A DNA stretch of 64,000 bases from Patescibacteria group bacterium (GTDB taxonomy: Bacteria; Patescibacteriota; Patescibacteriia; JAQUQO01). Both the position numbers and the translations under genes were made by a program. Positions 25,254 through 38,649 of the stretch are shown in pieces (within the stretch, counting starts at the first letter, position 1; every line of letters starts with the position of its first letter). Location: positions 725,176-789,175 of the forward strand of contig JAQUQO010000001.1 of assembly GCA_028716045.1 (NCBI GenBank), given 5' to 3'. The notes below the pieces were generated by a model that saw only the letters and a list, made by a program, of their open reading frames with translations, had not been told where the DNA came from and ran no database searches.

Positions 25254-25471
25254 TATTTCACGGTCTTTGAAAACCGTTTTTTAGCTAAAATTAGCAATCT
25301 TTGCGGTTACAACGTCTAAAAGTGGTTAGAGATATCCACGATAAAAAATCTCAAGAGACAATCACTTAGGTGTGGTGGTCTTATTAAGTAAATCCGTTTA
25401 ACTTAATATTCTCTTATATTTTGAGAGTTTTGTAGTCGGGGCTATTGTAAAATAGTTCCGATAAAACTCTT

Positions 25472-26950
<1,479 letters not shown>

Positions 26951-27203: not shown

Positions 27204-27280
27204 GGGCGCGTAGCTCAGTTGGTTAGAGCGCCACTCTGATAAAGTGGAGGTCGATGGTTCAACTCCATCTGCGCCCACCA
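27204..27280 (+). tRNA. tRNA-Ile (anticodon GAT), CCA encoded
   Basis: Cloverleaf by eye: GGGCGCG acceptor, anticodon loop CTGATAA, T-arm GATGGTTCAACTCCATC. Confidence 0.85.
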
Positions 27281-27392
27281 AAGAAAGATATTTAAATACT
27301 CTTTTAACTGGCGGGATGATAAAATAGAAGTTGATAATAAAACTCTCGTAGTCCCGAGTATTCGGGACGGAGACCCCGACTTTATGTCGGGG

Positions 27393-27407
27393 CATCTGCG
27401 CCCACCA
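27393..27407 (+). repeat. duplicate of the tRNA-Ile 3-prime end (CATCTGCGCCCACCA), preceded by GC hairpins
   Basis: Exact repeat of the last 15 nt of tRNA-Ile lying about 125 bp downstream. It is preceded by CCCCGAC-TTTAT-GTCGGGG and GTCCCGA-GTAT-TCGGGAC hairpins. Confidence 0.7.
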
Positions 27408-27428
27408 AAATAAATAAAACCGGCGGGA

Positions 27429-27505
27429 GGGCACCTAGCTCAGTTGGTTAGAGCGTCACATTGACATTGTGAAGGTCAGAGGTTCAACTCCTCTGGTGCC
27501 CACCA
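27429..27505 (+). tRNA. tRNA-Val (anticodon GAC), CCA encoded
   Basis: Acceptor GGGCACC/GGTGCCC. Anticodon stem TCACA/TGTGA with loop TTGACAT. Confidence 0.8.
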
Positions 27506-27512
27506 AACATTT

Positions 27513-28091
27513 ATGGACAATCAACCGTCTGTTATAAAAAAATATATCCTGGAATCCCTGGAACAGCTTGAACCGGTGGACGAGCAGGAAATTCAGGATA
27601 AAAAGAAAATCAAAAATTTTTTGGTTTTGCATCCGCAAAATTTTTATGACATTGAAAATTATAAAGGCCACGTCACGGTAAGCGGTGTTATTGTCTGCCG
27701 CGACCAGCTATTGCTTTTTAAAAAAAATAAATCCTCTCCTTGGGGACAGCTTCATAATCATTGTGAGGAAGGAGAATTCCCCTTCGCCACCATAAAAAAA
27801 ATACTGGAAGAAAAAACCGGAATAACCGACCTTAAACCAAGGTTTATAGATGAGGAGGAAAGACCGCTCCCCTATCAATGTGAAGTTTATGACATAGATG
27901 TCACACCGGACATTAAAACCGACCCCAATCATACTCATTTTGATTTGCTGTATCTTTTTGATATTAAAGACAAAAAAGCAGAAACGGAATTATCAGGAGA
28001 AGCGAAATGGTTTCCCAAAAACGAAGCGGCTAAACTAAACAAGCGCCTGCGGAAAGTGATTATGAAATTAATGGGGAAAATAATAATGTAA
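27513..28091 (+). CDS. hypothetical protein (weak Nudix-like segment)
   Basis: ORF starts immediately after tRNA-Val. The GQLHNHCEEGEFPFATIKKILEEKTGI segment only loosely resembles a Nudix box. Confidence 0.4.
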   Translation: MDNQPSVIKKYILESLEQLEPVDEQEIQDKKKIKNFLVLHPQNFYDIENYKGHVTVSGVIVCRDQLLLFKKNKSSPWGQLHNHCEEGEFPFATIKKILEEKTGITDLKPRFIDEEERPLPYQCEVYDIDVTPDIKTDPNHTHFDLLYLFDIKDKKAETELSGEAKWFPKNEAAKLNKRLRKVIMKLMGKIIM

Positions 28092-28224
28092 AATACGCCG
28101 AGGTAGCCCTGCCTGCCGGCAGGCAGGTCAGCGGCCCGCTCGCAACGCCAAGACATCGTTTTGGCGGACGAGTAAATTAAAATATTAAATATTAGAAATA
28201 AGTTAGTGCATCTGCCATTCATTT

Positions 28225-28296
28225 GCCGAGGTAGCTCAGCGGTAGAGCGAAGGACTGAAAATCCTTGCGTCGTGAGTCCAACTCTCACCCTCGGCA
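28225..28296 (+). tRNA. tRNA-Phe (anticodon GAA)
   Basis: Acceptor GCCGAGG/CCTCGGC. Anticodon loop CTGAAAA. T-arm GTGAGTCCAACTCTCAC. Confidence 0.8.
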
Positions 28297-28302
28297 CAAA
28301 AC

Positions 28303-28361
28303 AAATTCAAAATTCAAAAATCAAAATTAAAAATGGGTACAAAATTTTTGAATTTTGAATT
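28303..28361. repeat. inverted pair of TTGAATTTTGAATT repeat units
   Basis: AATTCAAAATTCAAAAA at 28304-28320 is the reverse complement of TTTTTGAATTTTGAATT at 28345-28361. The same unit occurs twice inside tsaE. Confidence 0.7.
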
Positions 28362-28373
28362 TTTCATTTATGG

Positions 28374-28450
28374 CGGGGCATAGCGCAGTTGGCTAGCGCG
28401 CCTGCTTTGGGAGCAGGAGGTCGTGAGTTCAAGTCTCACTGCCCCGACCA
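28374..28450 (+). tRNA. tRNA-Pro (anticodon TGG), CCA encoded
   Basis: C1:G72 acceptor CGGGGCA/TGCCCCG. Anticodon stem CCTGC/GCAGG with loop TTTGGGA. Confidence 0.8.
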
Positions 28451-28473
28451 AGTTAAATCTTTTTAATAAAATT

Positions 28474-30357
28474 ATGGCTGAACCAAGATTTGGAGAAAAT
28501 TTTAATCCCGACGCAACCAATCGATTAGATATTCTTAAAAAGACAGAAGATCTACCCGAGTATGTTGACACTAGCCGAGAAATCAGGGAAGCGTTAAAAT
28601 CAACTATTGAAACCAGGGGATGGCCCGAATGTCCGGAAATTAAAACTGTTGAAGATTTATTTTTATTGGCCAAAAAAGAAGTAAGCCACAGGTGGACCGA
28701 GGGAGCGCAAAAAATTTTATGCGAACAGACAAAAAAATGGGCGGAAGAAATACCTGACAATCAAGAGAATAAAGAATTACGACAAACTCTTCTCTCTCCC
28801 GATTTACTAAGTAGTGAAATGGAGATGCAGAGATTCGGAGCGATGGAAAAATTACGAGACATCAACCCGTCAGCCTGGAGAACCCTATTATTGGCTTCAT
28901 CCGAAAGACAATTAGCCTCAATAGTTCTTCTAAGAAAATGGGCAGCGGATTTGCCGGAAGAAAATCTAAAATCTCTCGGAGTCAGCCGAACCGAATTAGA
29001 ATTACTGCTGGACTCTGCTGGTATTGTTGGAAAATATGTTGACCAAGCTTATATAAAACAAGTTGAGTTGGCTGATGCCCCCGGCGGATCGTCTAAAAGC
29101 GCTTGGGCGGGGAAAGTCGGCGCTGAATATCTTTACGATATTCAACCTTCACCCGAGAGCCAAACGGTTAAACCGACAAGCTACAAGGATGTCTTTGCTT
29201 TTGAATGGCCTAAATTAATTAATCGTTTTCAAGTTTTGGCCCAAAAAGTGGAAACCCTACTTGATGACAAAAAACTGCCGGAATCATATCGGGGTCTGCC
29301 GGAATATCTGCGAGAAATGTCACAAGTATATGGTTCTGAAAGTGTTTCGCCAAAAGAATTAAAAAAACTCTGGAACAGCTTGCTCGCGAAAAATTTGAAT
29401 CTGGCTAACGCCGGATGCCCGCTGATGTTTATCCCCCAAAGCTGCGATATGGTGGCCGGGGAAGCGGCTAAAATAGATGTGGAAATTCGCTTGGCTATTC
29501 AGACTCCGGAAACAAAAAAATTAACCCAAACGATGAATGATTTTGGGGGCGCCGCTCAAGAGCTCTTGGCTGAAAATAAGGATGCTTTAAAAAATTACTA
29601 CGACATCCCGGCGGTTGTTATTAATGTCCAACCCTTTGCTTTTGGCCCCAATTTATACTACTTTACCGAGGCCGAAGCCGGGAGAGAATCAATTCTTTTA
29701 CATGCTAATATAAATCAGGAGTTGTCATCCAAAGAGAGAATTCCGCTCTTGGAAAAAACCTTGGGACAACCAATTGATAAAAATAAATTTAAAGAGGCCT
29801 CAGGCAAAGATACGGTTCTTCATGAATTGGGCCATACGGTTTGCGTTGAAGATGACCCTTCTGTCAGAAAACGCATCGGCACTGGTTCTGACGCCGCTAT
29901 TATGGAAGAGCTAAAAGCCGAAACCGTAGGAATGGAAATACTGCTTAGAAAACAAACGGGCGATTCCAAAGAAAAAGAACAAATTATTGAACAACAATTT
30001 TTGGCTAAACTGGGAGCGCTGGAGCAATACTTAGCTTACTATTCCAGCGAACCTGGCAGCAGTACGGAGCGGTATTATTTTACCGGCGTGGCCATTATCT
30101 CAAAACTTTTAGAAGAAGACGTTTTAGTTGAGCTTGGAGATAAATACATAATTACCGACGCTGAACGCGGTCTGCGAATTATCGCCGATATGGGTTTAGA
30201 TATTCTTAAAAAAATCTATGCTAATACCGCTGACCAGCCAAAGAAAGTAAAAGAAGCAATGAAAGAATATGTTAGAGATGTTAAACAAAAAGAAAAAACT
30301 CCGCCGGTTGACAAATTTATCAAAAATGTTAAAAAGGATATCCGTGCTTCCAATTAG
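28474..30357 (+). CDS. large hypothetical protein with HExxH zinc-metallopeptidase-like motif
   Basis: ATG (MAEPRF) lies 24 nt after tRNA-Pro. VLHELGHTV motif near residue 455. No other recognisable domain. Confidence 0.5.
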   Translation: MAEPRFGENFNPDATNRLDILKKTEDLPEYVDTSREIREALKSTIETRGWPECPEIKTVEDLFLLAKKEVSHRWTEGAQKILCEQTKKWAEEIPDNQENKELRQTLLSPDLLSSEMEMQRFGAMEKLRDINPSAWRTLLLASSERQLASIVLLRKWAADLPEENLKSLGVSRTELELLLDSAGIVGKYVDQAYIKQVELADAPGGSSKSAWAGKVGAEYLYDIQPSPESQTVKPTSYKDVFAFEWPKLINRFQVLAQKVETLLDDKKLPESYRGLPEYLREMSQVYGSESVSPKELKKLWNSLLAKNLNLANAGCPLMFIPQSCDMVAGEAAKIDVEIRLAIQTPETKKLTQTMNDFGGAAQELLAENKDALKNYYDIPAVVINVQPFAFGPNLYYFTEAEAGRESILLHANINQELSSKERIPLLEKTLGQPIDKNKFKEASGKDTVLHELGHTVCVEDDPSVRKRIGTGSDAAIMEELKAETVGMEILLRKQTGDSKEKEQIIEQQFLAKLGALEQYLAYYSSEPGSSTERYYFTGVAIISKLLEEDVLVELGDKYIITDAERGLRIIADMGLDILKKIYANTADQPKKVKEAMKEYVRDVKQKEKTPPVDKFIKNVKKDIRASN

Positions 30358-30630: not shown

Positions 30631-30664
30631 AAAAAGCCCCCCGAGTACTAGGGGGGCTTTTTTG
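30631..30664. terminator. bidirectional rho-independent terminator
   Basis: GCCCCCC...GGGGGGC stem flanked by an A-run and a T-run. Confidence 0.75.
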
Positions 30665-30712: not shown

Positions 30713-32467
30713 CTATCCCAGTTTATCTATTTCTTTTTTAAGATATCCCTCCATTTTTTTGATATTTTCCTGCAGTCTTTTCATCACAAATTCGTCGTCC
30801 GCCTCGGTAGGAGTCCCTATGGCTTGTTGTAATTTTTCCAAATCATCCTGTATAAGTTTAAAGACTTTAGCCATGTCGGTTTTAACGACTAAGAGTCGCA
30901 GTGCCAATTTCTTCCTCCGATTTTTATAAAACCAAGCTCCTCCGCCAAATCCTCCGGCTATTATTACAAGAAGAAATATCAAAGCGCCCCCCATCCCCAG
31001 TTGAAATTTCCCGATCTGAATTATGGGTTTTGATTTGACCTGTATATTTTGAGATTCAACCGTAAGACTCAAAGCTCCTCTCGCATCTTGACTCTGCGCC
31101 AATACAACATACTGTCCGTTTCGAAGCAGCTGATTACCAAAAATAAACTCCCAATTTCCTTTATCGTCTGCAATGGTAGTACCTTCTGTGACAACTTCCC
31201 CTTTCCCCTCTGGTAATACCCTTTGCACCCTAAGGAGAATATTGACATCGGGTAAAGCCGTGCCTTTTGCCGCTAGACCCTGCTCATTTTCAGAAAAAAG
31301 CTCTCTTGGCACAAAGGTAATGGTCGGCGAAGCAATAGGAAAAATCTCTATCTCTACGCTATCTTCAACACTATTCTCCGCTAGATCAATGGCCTTGACG
31401 AGTACTTTCTTTACCCCCGGGGCCTGAAGTGGCAATTTAAAGCTACCGGTAAAATCCGCGGCGGGAAGATTGATAAAATCGCCATCGCCAACTCTTATTT
31501 GATACTCTTTAAGACCCGAGAGGGCATCCGATGATTGGAATTGAAAAGTGGGCGCAGGATTGTCGGTTTTTTCTCCTTCCAGAATATTTACCTCGAAACC
31601 AAGCGGCGGTTGAGTATCAACAGCTATTTTATGATGTGCACTTGGCCCCCAGCCGATATTATTTTTAAAACGAACATGGAGATAGGAAATGCCATCAGAT
31701 AAAGCGGCGAACATTTTGTTATTAAAAAGACCTTCTGATTTTTCTCTTACGACAAAATTGGGCTGCTTGTTAATCGCGGTACTCACGCCGGAAATATCAA
31801 GCGGTAAATCCCAGCTTGCTGTAAATTGCGCCACCGAGTTATACCAACGGTCCTCTTCGGGATAGAGTGAAATTTTAAGAATGGGTTCTAGGGGCAACTT
31901 CCCCGAAGGTACGACTTCTCGAACGATTTGTTGAGGCTCGGGAATTTTTTGCTGGGGTTCCGGAACTTTTGGAATAATCCTTTGAGGGACTACTGTAATA
32001 ACTGCGTCATTCATCCTTGATAATATATTTGCCCCACTTCCATCAGAAGCGGTGATGGCGGCTTCCGTAAATGAAAGCGTGCCGCTGCCGGTTCCCTTTG
32101 CCCGAAACTCTATTTTGAGAATCCCGACCGCGCCGCCCGAAACTCCAAAGGGAGTTCCGCCTGTAAATGATATGGCGCCTTCGGAGTTAGAAAATTGAGG
32201 TTCTTCAAGCCAAAAACTGAGTGCCGATTCTGTTTTATTTAAGGCCGTCACTTCCAGCGTATCTTTGGGAAACCGAATTGTCGCCTGAGCCGCGTTAAAA
32301 CCCACCCCTTCGCTATCAATCCTAAGTTCAACCGTCATTTTTTCTCCGACTCCAATTTCAGAACTGACGGGTGTCAAAGAAAGTGTAGCGGCCTGCGCCG
32401 AGGAAAAAATTCCCGAAGCAATGACGCCGACCAATATGGCTATAATTGTTTTAAGTTGAGGTTTCAT
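30713..32467 (-). CDS. cell-surface protein with N-terminal cohesin-like domain and C-terminal TM anchor plus coiled-coil tail
   Basis: Signal peptide. Cohesin-like beta-sandwich sequence (LSLTPVSSEIGVGEKMTVELRID...GILKIEFRAKGTGSGTLSF). A C-terminal hydrophobic helix followed by KNRRKK and a charged tail. Confidence 0.5.
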   Translation of the reverse strand: MKPQLKTIIAILVGVIASGIFSSAQAATLSLTPVSSEIGVGEKMTVELRIDSEGVGFNAAQATIRFPKDTLEVTALNKTESALSFWLEEPQFSNSEGAISFTGGTPFGVSGGAVGILKIEFRAKGTGSGTLSFTEAAITASDGSGANILSRMNDAVITVVPQRIIPKVPEPQQKIPEPQQIVREVVPSGKLPLEPILKISLYPEEDRWYNSVAQFTASWDLPLDISGVSTAINKQPNFVVREKSEGLFNNKMFAALSDGISYLHVRFKNNIGWGPSAHHKIAVDTQPPLGFEVNILEGEKTDNPAPTFQFQSSDALSGLKEYQIRVGDGDFINLPAADFTGSFKLPLQAPGVKKVLVKAIDLAENSVEDSVEIEIFPIASPTITFVPRELFSENEQGLAAKGTALPDVNILLRVQRVLPEGKGEVVTEGTTIADDKGNWEFIFGNQLLRNGQYVVLAQSQDARGALSLTVESQNIQVKSKPIIQIGKFQLGMGGALIFLLVIIAGGFGGGAWFYKNRRKKLALRLLVVKTDMAKVFKLIQDDLEKLQQAIGTPTEADDEFVMKRLQENIKKMEGYLKKEIDKLG

Positions 32468-34326
32468 TTTTTTATAGTGCGAATAAATATGCTAAAATCC
32501 GAAATATCTATTTTCCCATCATCATTTAAATCTATTATTTTTTTCTGATTTTTGTCTTTCGCTCCCCAATTTGAAAGAAACATACTCCAATCTTTAATAT
32601 TAACCGCTCCATCACCATTTAAATCAGTTTTGGGTAGTGTCAAGCGAGATATCACTAAAGTATTCGTGGGCGAGTAATCGCTTTCTCGCTTTTGACCGGT
32701 GTCAACCTGCTTTACCCGCACGCGATGAGTACCAAATTCCAATATACCAGTATCTACTGCCACCTTGTATGACCCGTCTTTTTCTACATTCGCTTCTTTT
32801 TTTATTATATCATCTATTTCAACAATAACGCTATTATCCGGAGAGGCATTACCGGCAATAATGGCCGTTTCCCCTCGGCTGACCAGGCGCTGCGGAAGTC
32901 CAATGGTGGGTGGCACTAAAATATCTTTTACTATAAAGTCGTTTTCGAGAGTGCCAATATTAAAAAATTTCGTTTGCGTGGCGTGATTGTCCCTATCTTT
33001 AATAAGGAGGCCAAAACTATGCAGCCCCTGCGAAACGCTGACAAAATTTACCTGAAAAGTTCCGTTCTCATCCGCGACAATATTCTGATTTACCATTGTC
33101 TCAAAACGAACATCTTTATCTACTATAAATATTTTAGCATTAGGGAAGGCTCTCCCGGAAAATGCTACGGTAATGGGTTTTGCCCTGCCTTCACTAGATG
33201 GAATCGGCTCTGGTTCTGGCGAGGACAATGCGGTGGTCTCTTGTGTTGAGATATTATTTAAAGCTATGGGATCATCTGTATCGCTTAATACCGACGCAAT
33301 GTTTGTTATGGTGCCAATGGTACTTGAATCAATAGGAGAGGTTACTGTTATACTAGCCGACTGACTACTTGCGATAACACCAAGATTGCAGGGAAAAATA
33401 GAGCAAGCGCCTTGTGAGGAAGTAAGAGACGGAGAAGTAAGAGCGAGCGGCAAGGTGTCTGACACTACTACATTCTCGGCATTGTCAGGGCCATTATTGG
33501 TGACAGTGATGCTATAGGTAAGGGTATCTCCGGCAATAACTGGATCGGGGCTATCTAATTTTGTTATTGATAGATCAGCCGATGCGCCAGTAGTCGCCGC
33601 AGTGGCGGCACTTACAACATTAGAGAGCAAGGATTCATTTAGTACTTCATCGCTGGTTTTGATGGCAAAATAATATGTGGTTCCGGCAGTCAGCCCGGAA
33701 ATGGTCAGGGACTGCGCGGTGCCAGCTATTTGCGGAGTTGGCTCGCCGCTGACTTGAGTGGCGGAATTCCACTTGCTTTCATTGTTGATATCACTTGTTC
33801 TGTAACGGATATCGTAGGTTGTCGCAGTACCGCTGTTCTCATCATCACCGGGCGCGGTCCAGGAAAGATCGACCGAAGAAGTGGTGGGGTTGGCAGCGGC
33901 CAAATCGCTGACTGCCGAAGGAGCGGTTGTGTCAGAAGCCGTGGCAAAAATAACCTCTTGCGTAGAATCCACATTCAACCCAGTTCCTGCCGAGTCAAGA
34001 AGCGAAAGGGTGACGGTTTCGGCGACTAAATCATTAATTTCAATAGTCCCGACGCCGTTGACAATGGTTACTGGTCCTTCGCCCGTGGCTGAACCACCGG
34101 CAACCAGGGTAACATTTCCTTGATAAGAAGTGTCAACCTTGTTGTTGTTTTTTTGAGCTTCAACGGTGATGGTGACTGGCGTGCCAACTGTGCTGTCGTC
34201 TGGATCTAAAATGACAAATTTAACCGCGCCTTCTCCCCCCGGCGGTTTAGCCGCCGCGACAGTCGAAAAAAGAAACAAAATCAACACCAAAATAAATAAT
34301 GGGAAACGTATGTATTGAAGTTTCAT
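32464..34326 (-). CDS. secreted multidomain protein: FN3-like, DUF11-like repeat, C-terminal dockerin-like double repeat
   Basis: Signal peptide. SVDLSWTAPGDDENSGTATTYDIRYRTS (FN3-like). LSITKLDSPDPVIAGDTLTYSITVTNNGPDNAENVVVSDTLP (DUF11-like). DLNGDGAVNIKDWSMFLSNWG...DLNDDGKIDISDFSIFIRTI (dockerin-type Ca-binding repeats). Its stop overlaps the start of the cohesin-like gene (ATGA). Confidence 0.55.
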   Translation of the reverse strand: MKLQYIRFPLFILVLILFLFSTVAAAKPPGGEGAVKFVILDPDDSTVGTPVTITVEAQKNNNKVDTSYQGNVTLVAGGSATGEGPVTIVNGVGTIEINDLVAETVTLSLLDSAGTGLNVDSTQEVIFATASDTTAPSAVSDLAAANPTTSSVDLSWTAPGDDENSGTATTYDIRYRTSDINNESKWNSATQVSGEPTPQIAGTAQSLTISGLTAGTTYYFAIKTSDEVLNESLLSNVVSAATAATTGASADLSITKLDSPDPVIAGDTLTYSITVTNNGPDNAENVVVSDTLPLALTSPSLTSSQGACSIFPCNLGVIASSQSASITVTSPIDSSTIGTITNIASVLSDTDDPIALNNISTQETTALSSPEPEPIPSSEGRAKPITVAFSGRAFPNAKIFIVDKDVRFETMVNQNIVADENGTFQVNFVSVSQGLHSFGLLIKDRDNHATQTKFFNIGTLENDFIVKDILVPPTIGLPQRLVSRGETAIIAGNASPDNSVIVEIDDIIKKEANVEKDGSYKVAVDTGILEFGTHRVRVKQVDTGQKRESDYSPTNTLVISRLTLPKTDLNGDGAVNIKDWSMFLSNWGAKDKNQKKIIDLNDDGKIDISDFSIFIRTIKK

Positions 34327-34346: not shown

Positions 34347-34730
34347 TTATTTCGCCGCTTTTCTGCCCTCAAGATAATCTTTTACTTTTTCAATTATTTC
34401 TTGGATTGGGTGCTGGGATTTTACAAAGTAGTCATCAGCGCCCAGCTCCAGGGCCCGTTTGATTGTCATATCTTCTCCAAGATTTGATAAAACAATCACC
34501 GGAATCAATTTCCATTCGGGGTTCTTTTTTGTCTCCCCTAACACATAAAAGCCATCTTTTTTGGGCATCAAGATGTCAAGTAAAATAAGGTCTGGTTTTT
34601 TTCTCCCTATTTTCTCAATTGCCTCCTCTCCATTTTTAGCGACATCAACCGTACAACCCTCTGCGGTTAAATTATCTTCAAGCGTCCGAATCAAAAAATC
34701 TTCATCCTCAACAATTAATACATGATTCAT
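34347..34730 (-). CDS. single-domain response regulator (CheY-like receiver)
   Basis: LIVEDE...LILLDILMPKKDG...K motif set of REC domains. Confidence 0.85.
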   Translation of the reverse strand: MNHVLIVEDEDFLIRTLEDNLTAEGCTVDVAKNGEEAIEKIGRKKPDLILLDILMPKKDGFYVLGETKKNPEWKLIPVIVLSNLGEDMTIKRALELGADDYFVKSQHPIQEIIEKVKDYLEGRKAAK

Positions 34731-34756: not shown

Positions 34757-35944
34757 TTAACTTTTACACCCCCTCGACCTTTTAGGGATGCGTAAATAAA
34801 AGGTGGTGCCTTTATTTTCTTCTGATTTAAACGAAATTTTTCCGCCAATCTTTTCAGCCAGCATCTTGGCGATGTTAAGACCGAGACCCGTGCCATTTGG
34901 TTTTAGGGCTTTTGCATTGGAGGCACGATAAAATCGCTCAAACATTCTTTTCTGCTCCCTTTTGGGGATACCAATCCCGGAGTCACGAACAAAAAATATT
35001 ACTGCCCCTGATTCTTCCTTAACATCTAAAATCACTTTCTGGCCCGGCATTGAATAATCAACGGCGTTAGAAAGAAAGCATCCAAGAATTGCTTTTAATA
35101 TTTCCGGGTCCGTTTCAATGGTAAGCACCCGATGATTTAAGGGGCCCGATAACACCACCCCTCTCTCTTTGGCGGCGGCGGCCGCTATAATTAAAACGTC
35201 TTTAAAAAGAGATGCTACTGAAATTTTTTCTTTTTTTATGAGCGTCTCTTCACTCTCCAACCGCAATGTGCTCAATATTTCGGAAATAAGTTTAATCATC
35301 CGTTCATTAATTTTATAAATATCGTCAAGATACTCTTTTTGTTTTTTTGTCGTCCGGCCTATAACCCCCTTGTACATCGTCTCAATCAGCCACTTGGTGC
35401 CGGAAAGCGGAGTGCGCAATTGATGAGAGGCCAGCGATAAAAAATCCATCCTAATCCGCTCCAATTCTTTTTCTTTAGTAATATCATAAAAAATTTCTAC
35501 CGCTCCCGCTATCTTTCCTCTAAACAGCAAGGGGCTGATAACACTGGTTGCCGGAAATCTGCTTTTGTCTTTTCGGATATAATAAAAAGTAGGTAGTTTT
35601 TCAATACCACCGGTAGTGGTAGTGGTAGTGGTAGTCAATATCTTCCCTGCCAATACCTTTGAAAGAATTCTTTCTTTAAATGGCACTTTTTTTCTATTTT
35701 CATCTTCCCTTGGAATAATTTCAACCAAAAATTTTCCAATAACTTCTTTTTCTTTCCAATCAGTCAGCGATTCAAAGCCCTTGTTGACACGAATTATTTT
35801 CCCATCTTTATTAACAACCACCAACCCCATTACATGATCACCGGCAGAGGAAAAAATCGCCTCCTGTTCAGCAATTCTTCTTTCTGGAAGAAGAATTCGT
35901 TTTCCCCACCTTTTTATTTGTCTTGATTTTTTAACTTTTTTCAT
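34757..35944 (-). CDS. PAS-domain sensor histidine kinase with internal poly-Thr tract
   Basis: H-box SHQLRTPL, N-box LSNAVDYS, G-boxes DSGIGIP and GTGLGLNIAK. The (GGTAGT)x4 repeat encodes TTTTTTTT. Confidence 0.8.
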   Translation of the reverse strand: MKKVKKSRQIKRWGKRILLPERRIAEQEAIFSSAGDHVMGLVVVNKDGKIIRVNKGFESLTDWKEKEVIGKFLVEIIPREDENRKKVPFKERILSKVLAGKILTTTTTTTTGGIEKLPTFYYIRKDKSRFPATSVISPLLFRGKIAGAVEIFYDITKEKELERIRMDFLSLASHQLRTPLSGTKWLIETMYKGVIGRTTKKQKEYLDDIYKINERMIKLISEILSTLRLESEETLIKKEKISVASLFKDVLIIAAAAAKERGVVLSGPLNHRVLTIETDPEILKAILGCFLSNAVDYSMPGQKVILDVKEESGAVIFFVRDSGIGIPKREQKRMFERFYRASNAKALKPNGTGLGLNIAKMLAEKIGGKISFKSEENKGTTFYLRIPKRSRGCKS

Positions 35945-37236: not shown

Positions 37237-38649
37237 ATGGGAAAGATTTATCCGATTAATATTGTGGCTCTCCATAAAGAGCCCCACGTTGATGATGCCG
37301 GGGCCTATTTGCTTGCCAAAGAACACGGGGGAAAGATTTTCCCGGGTATTGAAACAGCAAAAATAGAATTTCTTGGGGAAAGATTCAATAATGGTGATGA
37401 ACTCCTGAAAACCGGCACTCTTTGTTTGGGAATCGGGCGAGGAAGATTTGACGATCACGCTCCCGAAAATAAAGGGGAAACTGCGTCGTCACTCATGGCT
37501 ATGTTTCTCGGCATAGAAAACGAAAAGGGCGTAAAAAACTTTCTCCGTTACACTCATAACGTTGACAGTCGCGCCAACGGGGACTCGTTCGACCTTGCCA
37601 ATATGTTAAAGGTATATTGGCAGGCCTACGCCAATATGCCCTTATCGCCAGAAGAAAGGCGGGAGAAGGAAATGATGGTCTTTGATTGGGCAGCCGCCGC
37701 CATAATCGCAAAACTTGAAAATCCGGAAATGCCGAAGGGGTTTCATGTCAAAAAATTGCTAAAACAATGCCAGCAAGAGGCAGAAAAAGAAAAATTAGAC
37801 ATAACGCCTTCGGACTACATCGACATTGAAAAGTATGTGGAACAAATTGATAAGGGTCAAAGAATCCGACCCTGGGGATTGGCGGTGTTGGCGGAAATAA
37901 TCACACAAAAAACCGGCGACCAGCAATGGTTTTATGATGCGGTGCTTGTAAAAATCCGCGACAGAATCTACTATCGTTATCAACTCGGGGAATTCGATAG
38001 GAAAGCAAAAATTTTTCAAATCACCGCGCCCAATGGACAGCAGATACGAATTGCCACTCTTAATGACGACGGCGCTTACCACAACAAAATTTTTAGAAAC
38101 GAAAATGGCGGCAAGTGTGATATTCTTATCCAAAAAACCAGCGCGGGGAATGTTCAAATCTATACCAATTCCCGCAGTAAAAACAAATTGCCGATTAAAA
38201 CAGTAATTGCTATTATACGCTCGGTAGAGTTGGAAAAGAAAAAAATTGATTCCCGCCGATTCCCTATGCCCTACCTTGAAAAATACGGAGAAATAGACGA
38301 AATACCCATCTGGTTTTACTCCGAAAGGGGAGAAATGTTGCTGAACGGCAGTTTAACTGCCGATAAGCCGGCGACAACACTAACTCTTGAGCAACTTTTA
38401 CAGATAGTCAAGTTCGCTTTTGAACCTGACCGTCTGCCGAAAGAATGCTGGCGGAGCAAAAAATGTTCCGAACCTTCTTGCATCCTGTCTGTTTTGAGAA
38501 TGGAATTCTGCTCTAATCTGAGACGCTTCGCCTCCCAAAACAATCCCCGCCGCGATAAGCAGCCGACGCCAACCGGGCGTAAACCTCAACACCTAAATCC
38601 GCGCCCGGAGGAAATCAAAACACCTCCGACGAAAGAACAACCTCGGTAA
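37237..38649 (+). CDS. hypothetical protein (possible metal-dependent hydrolase N-terminus; Pro/Arg-rich C-terminal tail)
   Basis: RBS AAGGAGG. The N-terminal HKEPHVDDAGAY pattern resembles His/Asp metal-site motifs of UPF0160-type hydrolases. Weak. Confidence 0.4.
   Translation: MGKIYPINIVALHKEPHVDDAGAYLLAKEHGGKIFPGIETAKIEFLGERFNNGDELLKTGTLCLGIGRGRFDDHAPENKGETASSLMAMFLGIENEKGVKNFLRYTHNVDSRANGDSFDLANMLKVYWQAYANMPLSPEERREKEMMVFDWAAAAIIAKLENPEMPKGFHVKKLLKQCQQEAEKEKLDITPSDYIDIEKYVEQIDKGQRIRPWGLAVLAEIITQKTGDQQWFYDAVLVKIRDRIYYRYQLGEFDRKAKIFQITAPNGQQIRIATLNDDGAYHNKIFRNENGGKCDILIQKTSAGNVQIYTNSRSKNKLPIKTVIAIIRSVELEKKKIDSRRFPMPYLEKYGEIDEIPIWFYSERGEMLLNGSLTADKPATTLTLEQLLQIVKFAFEPDRLPKECWRSKKCSEPSCILSVLRMEFCSNLRRFASQNNPRRDKQPTPTGRKPQHLNPRPEEIKTPPTKEQPR

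Follow-up and report, generated by a model that had tools for sequence, protein, structure and literature searches.

A predicted cohesin-dockerin tether for a variable fibrillar surface protein within a conserved four-gene cassette of Parcubacteria

Two adjacent genes (A and B) in the window, i.e., the whole 64-kb stretch of DNA analysed here, belong to a conserved four-gene cassette together with a PAS histidine kinase (HK) and a receiver-only response regulator (RR). We consider it fairly probable that A and B form a non-cellulosomal cohesin-dockerin tether that displays a variable, likely adhesive fibre, and that the four genes are transcribed together and tied in function.

Few uncultured bacteria are as abundant as Parcubacteria/Paceibacteria, yet for most of them neither the host nor the mode of attachment is known. 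The cassette is a concrete, widely conserved candidate for a surface-attachment apparatus in this group. It would combine a constant membrane socket and a plug-in fibre with a lineage-dependent head, making the heads natural candidates for determinants of host specificity, and the constant cohesin-dockerin interface could serve for pull-downs or labelling in enrichment cultures. The modules themselves are already annotated individually, as NCBI names the proteins ‘cohesin domain-containing’ and ‘dockerin type I domain-containing’; the novelty lies in the cassette and its conservation. No description of the pair was found in the literature searched on cohesins and dockerins in Patescibacteria, Parcubacteria or CPR, which does not prove that none exists.

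A conserved four-gene cassette

The cassette and the element that follows it are arranged as follows:

34757..35944, reverse strand: soluble PAS-HisKA-HATPase histidine kinase (HK), first gene of the cassette (Pfam)
34347..34730, reverse strand: receiver-only response regulator (RR), 127 aa, without output domain (Pfam)
32464..34326, reverse strand: gene A, 620 aa, secreted modular protein with C-terminal dockerin (ORF, Pfam)
30713..32467, reverse strand: gene B, 584 aa, type-I membrane protein with N-terminal cohesin (ORF)
30637..30655, reverse strand: terminator-like hairpin and T-run after gene B (consensus scan only)

The open reading frames of A and B lie exactly where the original prediction had placed them, and the translational coupling that it proposed is borne out by the four nucleotides (ATGA) common to the gene A stop and the gene B start. 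The RR stop codon lies 20 nt ahead of the gene A start, and HK-RR-A-B are probably co-transcribed as four genes. The hairpin and T-run after gene B likely mark the operon end, though this is a weak cue; total site counts in the promoter/terminator scan of the region were not above shuffle expectation.

Orthologous loci came from MAGs of Azam-, Nomura-, Yonath-, Adler-, Wolfe-, Staskawicz-, Yanofsky-, Harrison-, Lloyd-, Magasanik-, Uhr- and Falkowbacteria. The gene immediately upstream of the cohesin gene ends in an Ig-Ig-dockerin module in 60 of 61 such Parcubacteria loci, with the two genes overlapping by 4 nt in 10 and separated by a gap of ≤30 nt in 41. A same-strand HK is found ≤1.5 kb from the pair in 30/36 loci with full context, and 30/38 loci have a same-strand REC-only RR ≤300 nt away, with six more at ≤2.5 kb. 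The order of the two-component genes varies, with HK-RR upstream in some lineages and RR(-HK) downstream in others; in three loci (L010, L012 and L018) the RR is placed between the two pair genes.

The PAS_9, HisKA and HATPase_c domains of the HK all scored above their Pfam thresholds, and no transmembrane segment was seen in it by eye. The RR matched Response_reg with 85.7 bits over residues 4-116 of 127. An H-box (SHQLRTPL) in the HK and the receiver Asp in LLDILMP, both located by eye, identify the two proteins, along with their Pfam domains, as two-component partners. Lacking an output domain, the RR must act via protein contacts. Kinase and regulator are probably functionally tied to the A-B pair. 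In one clade a PAS domain substitutes for the cytoplasmic tail of the anchor. These PAS-fused anchors fall into four protein clusters with 50-100% identity, drawn from NCBI, ENA and Logan assemblies, and neither RR nor HK was detected in the DNA available for loci L047, L051 and L054.

A and B had been described as a minimal anchor-plus-cargo pair. The anchor-plus-cargo part gains strong indirect support, the adjacency in 60/61 loci included, whereas ‘minimal’ has to be dropped, since a conserved HK and RR adjoin the pair and the anchor of one clade carries a cytoplasmic PAS domain.

Modules of the secreted protein and its predicted anchor

The following features were assigned in gene A:

34252..34326, reverse strand: signal peptide, ~residues 1-25, ...TVAAA/KP (read from sequence)
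33931..34227, reverse strand: N-terminal Ig-like unit, residues 34-132 (weak Ig_VWA7 match)
33652..33918, reverse strand: fibronectin type III domain, residues 137-225 (Pfam fn3)
33241..33576, reverse strand: DUF11/CLIPPER domain, residues 251-362 (Pfam DUF11)
32647..33174, reverse strand: conserved pair of Ig/FN3-like beta-sandwiches, residues 385-470 and 481-560
32473..32628, reverse strand: type-I dockerin, residues 567-618 (Pfam Dockerin_1)
32590..32625, reverse strand: dockerin Ca loop 1, residues 568-579, DLNGDGAVNIKD
32497..32532, reverse strand: dockerin Ca loop 2, residues 599-610, DLNDDGKIDISD

A secreted protein ending in two dockerin-type calcium-binding repeats had been predicted, and this description holds. 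The signal peptide, recognised by eye, has a basic n-region, a hydrophobic core and an AAA motif. The Dockerin_1 match of 30.0 bits is above the gathering cut-off of 22.9 (Pfam PF00404), and the 12-residue Ca2+ loop, defined by D/N at positions 1, 3, 5, 9 and 12 with a helix after each loop (F-hand pair), is duplicated, the loop starts being 31 residues apart. The structure model places three helices here, including one after each loop. Among 56 orthologs, the loop Asp/Asn residues and the DWSxF and DFSIF helices are at least 90% conserved, and a search with the loop pattern in all six frames of the window returned the two gene A loops as sole matches.

The FN3- and DUF11-like modules of the original prediction were likewise recovered by Pfam, with 40.3 bits for fn3 (cut-off 25) and 82.1 bits for DUF11 (cut-off 24.6). 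The DUF11 family, since renamed CLIPPER, consists of CnaA-like domains that carry an isopeptide bond and form stalks in fibrillar adhesins (PMC12617251); a phmmer search of this segment against PDB sequences returned no match. The N-terminal Ig-like unit has up to six matches in the partner proteins of other lineages. The C-terminal module ahead of the dockerin is Ig/FN3-like only, and its second sandwich directly precedes the dockerin, an X-module-like position. Sequence inspection revealed neither a transmembrane segment nor a sortase signal in gene A. Pfam revealed no catalytic domain in it, nor do the precomputed Pfam assignments of its homologs include one; an adhesive tip domain or a ligand-binding module could likewise not be recognised in it.

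Conservation among A orthologs is confined to the Ig-Ig-dockerin C-terminus (query residues ~370-620). Their N-terminal heads range from 164 to 2650 aa, the longer proteins carrying tandem Ig-like units up to ~2650 aa.

Head swapping was considered for loci L001 and L003, which have an identical anchor, and was rejected because the two differ in the copy number of an internal tandem repeat and not in the head. This difference in repeat number is either real variation or assembly collapse.

The features of gene B are as follows:

32390..32467, reverse strand: signal peptide, residues 1-26, AQA/A (sequence; modelled helix 3-20)
31988..32389, reverse strand: cohesin-fold domain, residues 27-160
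31880..31987, reverse strand: Pro-rich flexible linker, residues 161-196, PEPQQKIPEPQQ... (model)
31028..31879, reverse strand: stalk of three Ig-like beta domains, residues 197-480 (model)
30926..30994, reverse strand: transmembrane helix, residues 492-514, GGALIFLLVIIAGGFGGGAWFY then KNRRKK (sequence)
30716..30925, reverse strand: cytoplasmic helical hairpin, residues 515-584 (model)

Gene B thus encodes a single-cohesin protein with a signal peptide and without LPXTG, fixed to the envelope by its C-terminal transmembrane helix. Sequence and structure model agree with the cohesin-like N-terminus, membrane anchor and helical tail originally proposed. Residues A26 and A27 are invariant in the family alignment. 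The linker differs in length among orthologs, and its residues 163-173 have pLDDT <50 and no secondary structure. The strands of the stalk were modelled at pLDDT 80-95; Big_13 matches occur in 23/26 family members, and residues 307-373 gave a weak OmpL47-type match. In the model, the transmembrane helix runs on to residue 549 and is followed by a loop and a second helix (556-583). The family is stereotyped in length (~575 aa), with a mean column identity of 63% over the full length of 26 members and 40-80% identity across orders, and it comprises 1231 50%-identity representatives at E≤1e-30.

Profile searches, which had been suggested as a check on both modules, gave a significant match for the dockerin only. 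The gene B cohesin scored 16.3 bits, below the cut-off of 24.1 (E 0.012), while spanning profile positions 7-139 of 139 (PF00963). Despite this, the assignment holds on fold and family evidence. The domain is a nine-stranded beta-sandwich (jelly-roll) that can be superimposed on solved cohesins. The ortholog at locus L051 passes the Cohesin HMM with 26.6 bits, E<0.01 was reached by 5/26 family members (best 1.1e-5), and PF00963 is precomputed for ~44/120 gene B homologs among the matches listed. In a search of the family profile against PDB sequences, the top three matches were Ruminococcus flavefaciens cohesins, at E values of only 0.03-0.08 that are not decisive alone.

Proposed cohesin-dockerin pairing and alternative readings

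Of all modules in their proteins, dockerin and cohesin evolve most slowly, with mean p-distances of 0.46 and 0.48, respectively, against 0.54-0.70 for the others. Strands 8-3-6-5 form the canonical dockerin-binding sheet of cohesins. With the sequential strand numbers of the model taken as canonical numbering, these strands are more conserved than 9-1-2-7-4 (0.69 vs 0.56, one-sided Mann-Whitney p=0.0075). Partial Mantel tests gave no cohesin-specific co-evolution (dockerin~cohesin|B_Ig r=0.24; dockerin~B_Ig|cohesin r=0.41); all modules co-diverge, so that this mirror-tree approach does not discriminate. Taken together, the adjacency of the genes, the lack of an anchor in A, the slow evolution of dockerin and cohesin, and the conserved binding sheet lend strong indirect support to the predicted anchor-plus-cargo arrangement.

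In the tether that we propose from these sequence features, B would be exported and kept in the membrane by its single C-terminal transmembrane helix, with the three Ig-like stalk domains and the Pro-rich linker spacing its one cohesin from the membrane. A would be secreted without an anchor of its own, and its C-terminal Ig-like module and Ca2+-binding dockerin would plug into the B cohesin in a 1:1 manner. The variable, non-catalytic head of A (here Ig-like, fn3 and CLIPPER) would thereby be displayed as a fibrillar surface protein. Its most likely role would be attachment to a partner cell, host cell or surface, as the domain types suggest.

It is quite improbable that the modules of A and B do not bind each other and that their adjacency reflects co-regulation only. 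The dockerin would then be a Ca2+-dependent glycan or wall binder or the partner of another cohesin, and the B cohesin would bind a foreign (host) protein. The partners of many non-cellulosomal dockerins and cohesins are not known (Peer et al. 2009), and Wang et al. (2023) propose that an essential Saccharibacterium dockerin protein targets glycans; the missing cohesin-specific co-evolution signal would also fit. However, the direct adjacency is near-universal, often with overlapping stop and start codons, A would be left without a means of cell retention, the window holds a single dockerin, and constraint is strongest on the dockerin and on the putative binding sheet of the cohesin. An envelope or S-layer-type structure, constitutively spanning the wall or forming a lattice, with head variability driven by phage or predator pressure instead of host recognition, is unlikely. 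It would suit the very widespread and stereotyped B family and the lack of an identifiable ligand-binding tip in A, but S-layer proteins are usually poorly conserved, in contrast to the identity of B across orders, and the Ig-array matches are generic. One cohesin with one docked fibre of very variable length is better suited to a tethered appendage than to a lattice, and the sensor system beside the pair speaks for regulated use. A small enzyme complex of the cellulosome type, breaking down polysaccharides, is extremely improbable and was rejected on domain content, as A and B include neither a dockerin-bearing catalytic subunit nor a multi-cohesin scaffoldin with a CBM. In both proteins glycoside hydrolase, esterase, lyase and CBM domains are absent, no GH/CE/PL appears among the domains precomputed for 120 A homologs, B has one cohesin, and the module preceding the dockerin of A is of Ig/FN3 type.

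More tentatively, the cohesin anchor may act as an adaptor across the membrane and communicate, through its cytoplasmic hairpin or fused PAS domain, with the PAS kinase or the receiver-only RR, either reporting engagement or tension of the docked fibre inward or controlling the fibre from inside. This would supplement the tether. The association of RR and pair outlasts rearrangement (upstream, downstream or between the genes), the RR depends on protein contacts, and essentially all B homologs retain the transmembrane helix together with a tail that varies little in length (~69-79 aa). The four PAS-for-tail clusters, with no RR or HK detected in the available DNA of the three loci examined, point the same way, as does the covariation of tail class with the position of the two-component genes, although the latter is confounded by phylogeny. 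Against this, the support is indirect, consisting of gene neighbourhood and a single clade with the fusion; no part of B evolves faster than the tail (p-distance 0.70), which has no detectable family and no His/Asp phosphorylation motif; and the two-component genes may share the operon merely for expression control via an unseen partner. An integrin-like adhesion-signalling receptor coupling the state of a docked variable fibre to the PAS HK and RR is a doubtful, if possible, description of the anchor. We know of no signalling-coupled tethering in cellulosomal systems, and the kinase/RR association and the natural anchor-PAS fusion raise the idea of such coupling; if true, this would be the first case of signal transduction linked to a cohesin-dockerin system, and a possible means for Parcubacteria to sense or control contact with partner cells.

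Relation to known tethers and fibrillar adhesins

A and B are best read as a tether of the ScaE/CttA kind that would hold a variable fibrillar protein on the surface and may be coupled to signalling. In the sca cluster of R. flavefaciens, the ScaE cohesin anchors the adhesin CttA via an XDoc (PMC5301203). ScaE is linked to the wall by sortase (LPXTG), whereas B is held by a transmembrane helix with a cytoplasmic tail; CttA bears CBMs, whereas A bears Ig-like, fn3 and CLIPPER domains. The dockerin of A scores as type I (Dockerin_1) in contrast to the type III XDoc with insertions of ScaE-CttA. ScaE also anchors the whole cellulosome via ScaB, while the A-B system has neither enzymes nor scaffoldins, and the two-component link is a feature of the A-B cassette and not of the sca cluster. 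The Clostridium thermocellum type II anchors SdbA and OlpB, which bind the CipA X-dockerin, differ from B in their SLH domains and their multi-enzyme scaffoldin cargo.

Non-cellulosomal modules are known from the glycosidases and toxins of Clostridium perfringens (2vo8, 2w1n, 2o4e), where secreted enzymes are joined together, and from Archaeoglobus fulgidus (2xdh), where the partners are soluble and the role is unclear (Peer et al. 2009). In neither case does a conserved operon encode a transmembrane-anchored receptor together with a fibrillar partner that is hypervariable. SEML1_0315 of the epibiotic saccharibacterium Southlakia epibionticum is a dockerin envelope protein, as A is predicted to be; it is essential and has a proposed host-interaction role (PMC10633639). 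It comes from another Patescibacteria class, and that paper describes no cohesin partner or operon for it.

A shares the stalk-type domains of fibrillar adhesins, CLIPPER included (PMC12617251), with no adhesive tip recognised in it. A classical fibrillar adhesin is one polypeptide that is either attached covalently (by sortase) or held by an OmpA-like or beta-barrel domain, whereas in the A-B system the anchor is a separate protein and the joint is predicted to be a non-covalent cohesin-dockerin contact.

Gene organisation and module architecture

The original prediction described an adjacent pair of surface proteins, comprising a secreted modular protein with a C-terminal dockerin (gene A) and a membrane-anchored protein with an N-terminal cohesin (gene B). 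Both open reading frames (ORFs) were recovered with exactly the predicted boundaries, together with two further genes on the same strand.

Features of the cassette
34757..35944 (-), soluble PAS-HisKA-HATPase histidine kinase (HK), 395 aa, before the response regulator
34347..34730 (-), receiver-only response regulator (RR), 127 aa, 20 nt before gene A
32464..34326 (-), gene A, ORF of 620 aa
30713..32467 (-), gene B, ORF of 584 aa
30655-30637 (-), terminator-like hairpin after gene B, found by scan (a weak cue)

The stop codon of A and the start codon of B share an ATGA tetranucleotide (…AAAAAATGAAAC…), which upholds the proposed translational coupling. The Patescibacteria MAG GCA_028711565.1 encodes a protein 100% identical to that of gene B. 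The dockerin gene in the public record JAQTRY010000001.1 is labelled ‘partial’ (430 aa; P0122); the ORF in the window is uninterrupted at 620 aa and includes the signal peptide.

Gene A begins with a signal peptide, as judged from its sequence, and inspection of that sequence revealed neither a transmembrane (TM) segment nor a sortase signal. The fn3, DUF11 and Dockerin_1 modules attributed to it all scored above their Pfam gathering thresholds.

Modules of gene A (reverse strand)
Residues 137-225, fn3, 40 bits
Residues 251-362 (33241-33576), DUF11, 82 bits
Residues 567-618, Dockerin_1, 30.0 bits against a cut-off of 22.9
Residues 568-579, calcium loop DLNGDGAVNIKD
Residues 599-610, calcium loop DLNDDGKIDISD

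Across all six frames of the 64-kb window, only these two loops matched the dockerin-loop pattern. The DUF11 family recently received the name CLIPPER. It comprises CnaA-like, isopeptide-stabilised domains that form the stalks of fibrillar adhesins (PMC12617251), and an intramolecular Lys-Asn isopeptide bond is often present. A candidate triad was picked out by eye at K256 (SITKLD), D289 (VVVSDTLP) and N354/N355 (ALNNIS); a phmmer search of the DUF11 segment against PDB sequences returned no match.

The AlphaFold model of gene B, built from an alignment of 26 family members (mean pLDDT 82.3), bears out both the cohesin-like N-terminal sandwich and the C-terminal membrane anchor with its helical tail. 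A signal-peptide helix is followed by a nine-stranded sandwich (residues 27-160), a disordered Pro-rich linker and three more beta domains (about 197-480), after which a TM helix starting at 492 continues into a cytoplasmic helix ending at 549, then a loop and a second helix (556-583). The Pfam Cohesin profile is matched over positions 7-139 of 139 at only 16.3 bits, below the cut-off of 24.1; orthologs of gene B do exceed that threshold, and a precomputed Cohesin match is present in about 44 of 120 listed homologs. Taken together, the model and the family-level sequence evidence therefore establish the cohesin fold of gene B, with strict HMM membership of the window sequence itself being borderline. 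The giant proteins P0339 (4269 aa), P0403 (2468 aa) and P0404 (1700 aa) contain 13-31 copies of the Ig-like unit found at residues ~255-375 of gene B, so the stalk domain also serves as a repeating element in very large surface proteins.

Conservation of the pair across Parcubacteria

A scan of a genome collection with the gene B family yielded 78 loci from many Parcubacteria lineages, and ORFs called at each locus were searched with the four window proteins. Close orthologs were taken as those scoring 300 bits or more, and 61 of them had 600 nt or more of DNA upstream. In 60 of these, a directly upstream, same-strand gene matched A residues ~370-620, the Ig-Ig-dockerin module; L018 was the single close ortholog without a detected upstream dockerin partner. 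The two genes overlapped by 4 nt in 10 loci and lay no more than 30 nt apart in 41. Gene B was stereotyped in length (~575 aa), with a mean column identity of 63% over 26 members. The N-terminal parts of its partners spanned 164 to 2650 aa, often as tandem copies of an Ig-like unit (A residues 34-132) or as TIG domains. Such a stereotyped B beside a head-variable A reads as the signature of a putative constant anchor with variable cargo. An exhaustive HMMER search for gene B relatives retrieved 1231 50%-identity representatives at E ≤ 1e-30, a total that includes some giant proteins matching only via repeated Ig-like units; most of the top 150 were full-length. Complete genomes with the cassette include CP066691.1 and CP011209.1.

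Two loci, L001 (2616-5990) and L003 (1-2525), share an identical anchor (P0061), and their partner genes differ by ~1 kb within an internal array of tandem Ig-like repeats, leaving the partner ORF of L003 split. This may represent either real repeat-number variation or assembly collapse. Distant gene B homologs (L069-L083, under 250 bits) still have a cohesin-like N-terminal region, a TM helix and a tail of ~75 aa; their direct upstream gene encodes a small (~200-300 aa), C-terminally TM-anchored protein, not a dockerin protein, and a dockerin-module gene is found as the second gene upstream in L072 and L076.

Two-component neighbours and the cytoplasmic tail

The description of the pair as a “minimal” anchor-plus-cargo system had overlooked its signalling neighbours. 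Of the 38 loci with sufficient flanking DNA, 30 encoded a receiver-only RR in the same orientation and no more than 300 nt from the pair, and another six did so at up to 2.5 kb; an HK lay within 1.5 kb in 30 of 36 loci. The order of these genes varies by lineage and the association persists. HK-RR may precede the dockerin gene, as in the window; the RR, with or without the HK, may directly follow the cohesin gene; these upstream and downstream arrangements may occur together; or the RR may sit between the dockerin and cohesin genes. At L010, L012 and L018 the RR is immediately upstream of the cohesin gene, and in the first two it separates this gene from the dockerin gene.

Essentially all gene B homologs, distant ones included, have a TM helix and a cytoplasmic tail of near-constant length (69-79 aa). 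Two sequence classes of this tail track where the two-component genes lie, a correlation confounded by phylogeny. In three anchors of 636-643 aa (L047:2739-4649; L051:5193-7124, from a Harrisonbacteria MAG; and L054:1756-3678), a cytoplasmic PAS domain (PAS_9, E 1e-14 to 8e-17) takes the place of the ~70-aa helical hairpin after the TM helix; neither RR nor HK was detected within the DNA available at these loci. Independent assemblies yield four protein clusters with this fusion (P0241-P0244), which share 50-100% identity and form one clade. This Rosetta-stone-type fusion and the gene neighbourhood suggest, as a tentative and rather doubtful hypothesis, that the cytoplasmic end of the anchor might communicate with PAS/two-component signalling.

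The HK gene of the window contains a perfect hexanucleotide repeat, (ACTACC)x4 (35612-35635, reverse strand), encoding an eight-threonine run in the PAS domain; the tract is possibly slippage-prone and variable in length within frame.

Probable cohesin-dockerin binding, proposed role and flanking genes

Module divergence in 56 non-redundant syntenic A/B pairs was lowest for the dockerin (mean p-distance 0.46) and the cohesin (0.48), the slowest-evolving modules of their proteins, compared with 0.54 for the B Ig, 0.63 for the A Ig and 0.70 for the B tail. In solved cohesin-dockerin complexes, strands 8, 3, 6 and 5 form the dockerin-binding sheet. Presuming that the sequential strand order of the model equals the canonical numbering, these strands were more conserved than the opposite sheet (0.69 vs 0.56; one-sided Mann-Whitney p = 0.0075) and held 13 of the 19 strand positions conserved at 90% or more. 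A partial-Mantel test of co-evolution between dockerin and cohesin gave a signal that was not specific, and a possible minority reading is that the A dockerin and B cohesin are not each other’s partners. On the indirect evidence as a whole, we strongly infer that the A dockerin binds the B cohesin.

In the proposed mechanism, B would be exported and retained by its TM helix with positive residues inside, while its Ig-like stalk and Pro-rich linker would hold the cohesin away from the membrane. Secreted A would then be captured 1:1 via its X-module-like Ig domain and dockerin, displaying its non-catalytic head as a fibre whose length and composition would differ among lineages. An adhesive role for the pair appears plausible because of the domain types present (fn3, CLIPPER and Ig/TIG repeats), the lifestyle usually ascribed to bacteria with such small genomes, and the ScaE-CttA precedent. 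In R. flavefaciens, ScaE is anchored to the envelope and its single cohesin holds CttA, an adhesin with no catalytic function, by way of an XDoc (PMC5301203). An S-layer or structural role for the same proteins is a possible minority reading. A cellulosome reading was rejected, since no catalytic or CBM modules are present in A or B.

The modules themselves are known, and in public annotation the proteins already carry the names ‘cohesin domain-containing’ and ‘dockerin type I domain-containing’. In the literature searched, neither the Parcubacteria cohesin-dockerin pair nor its operon was described; the nearest functional report concerns a Saccharibacterium, in which an envelope protein with a dockerin domain is essential (PMC10633639). 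The pair would represent a non-cellulosomal cohesin-dockerin tether that is anchored by a TM helix, has a hypervariable fibrillar partner and is set inside a two-component cassette.

Elsewhere in the window lie a 16S rRNA gene and several tRNAs, with no 23S gene anywhere within it. After the 16S rRNA gene come tRNA-Ile, tRNA-Val, a NUDIX gene, tRNA-Phe and tRNA-Pro (25470-26950 and 27204-28450). Two ORFs flank the cassette, at 28423-30357 (+; 644 aa) and 37237-38649 (+; 470 aa), neither with a Pfam match at E ≤ 0.001. The start of the former, as called mechanically, overlaps tRNA-Pro, so its true start probably lies further downstream.
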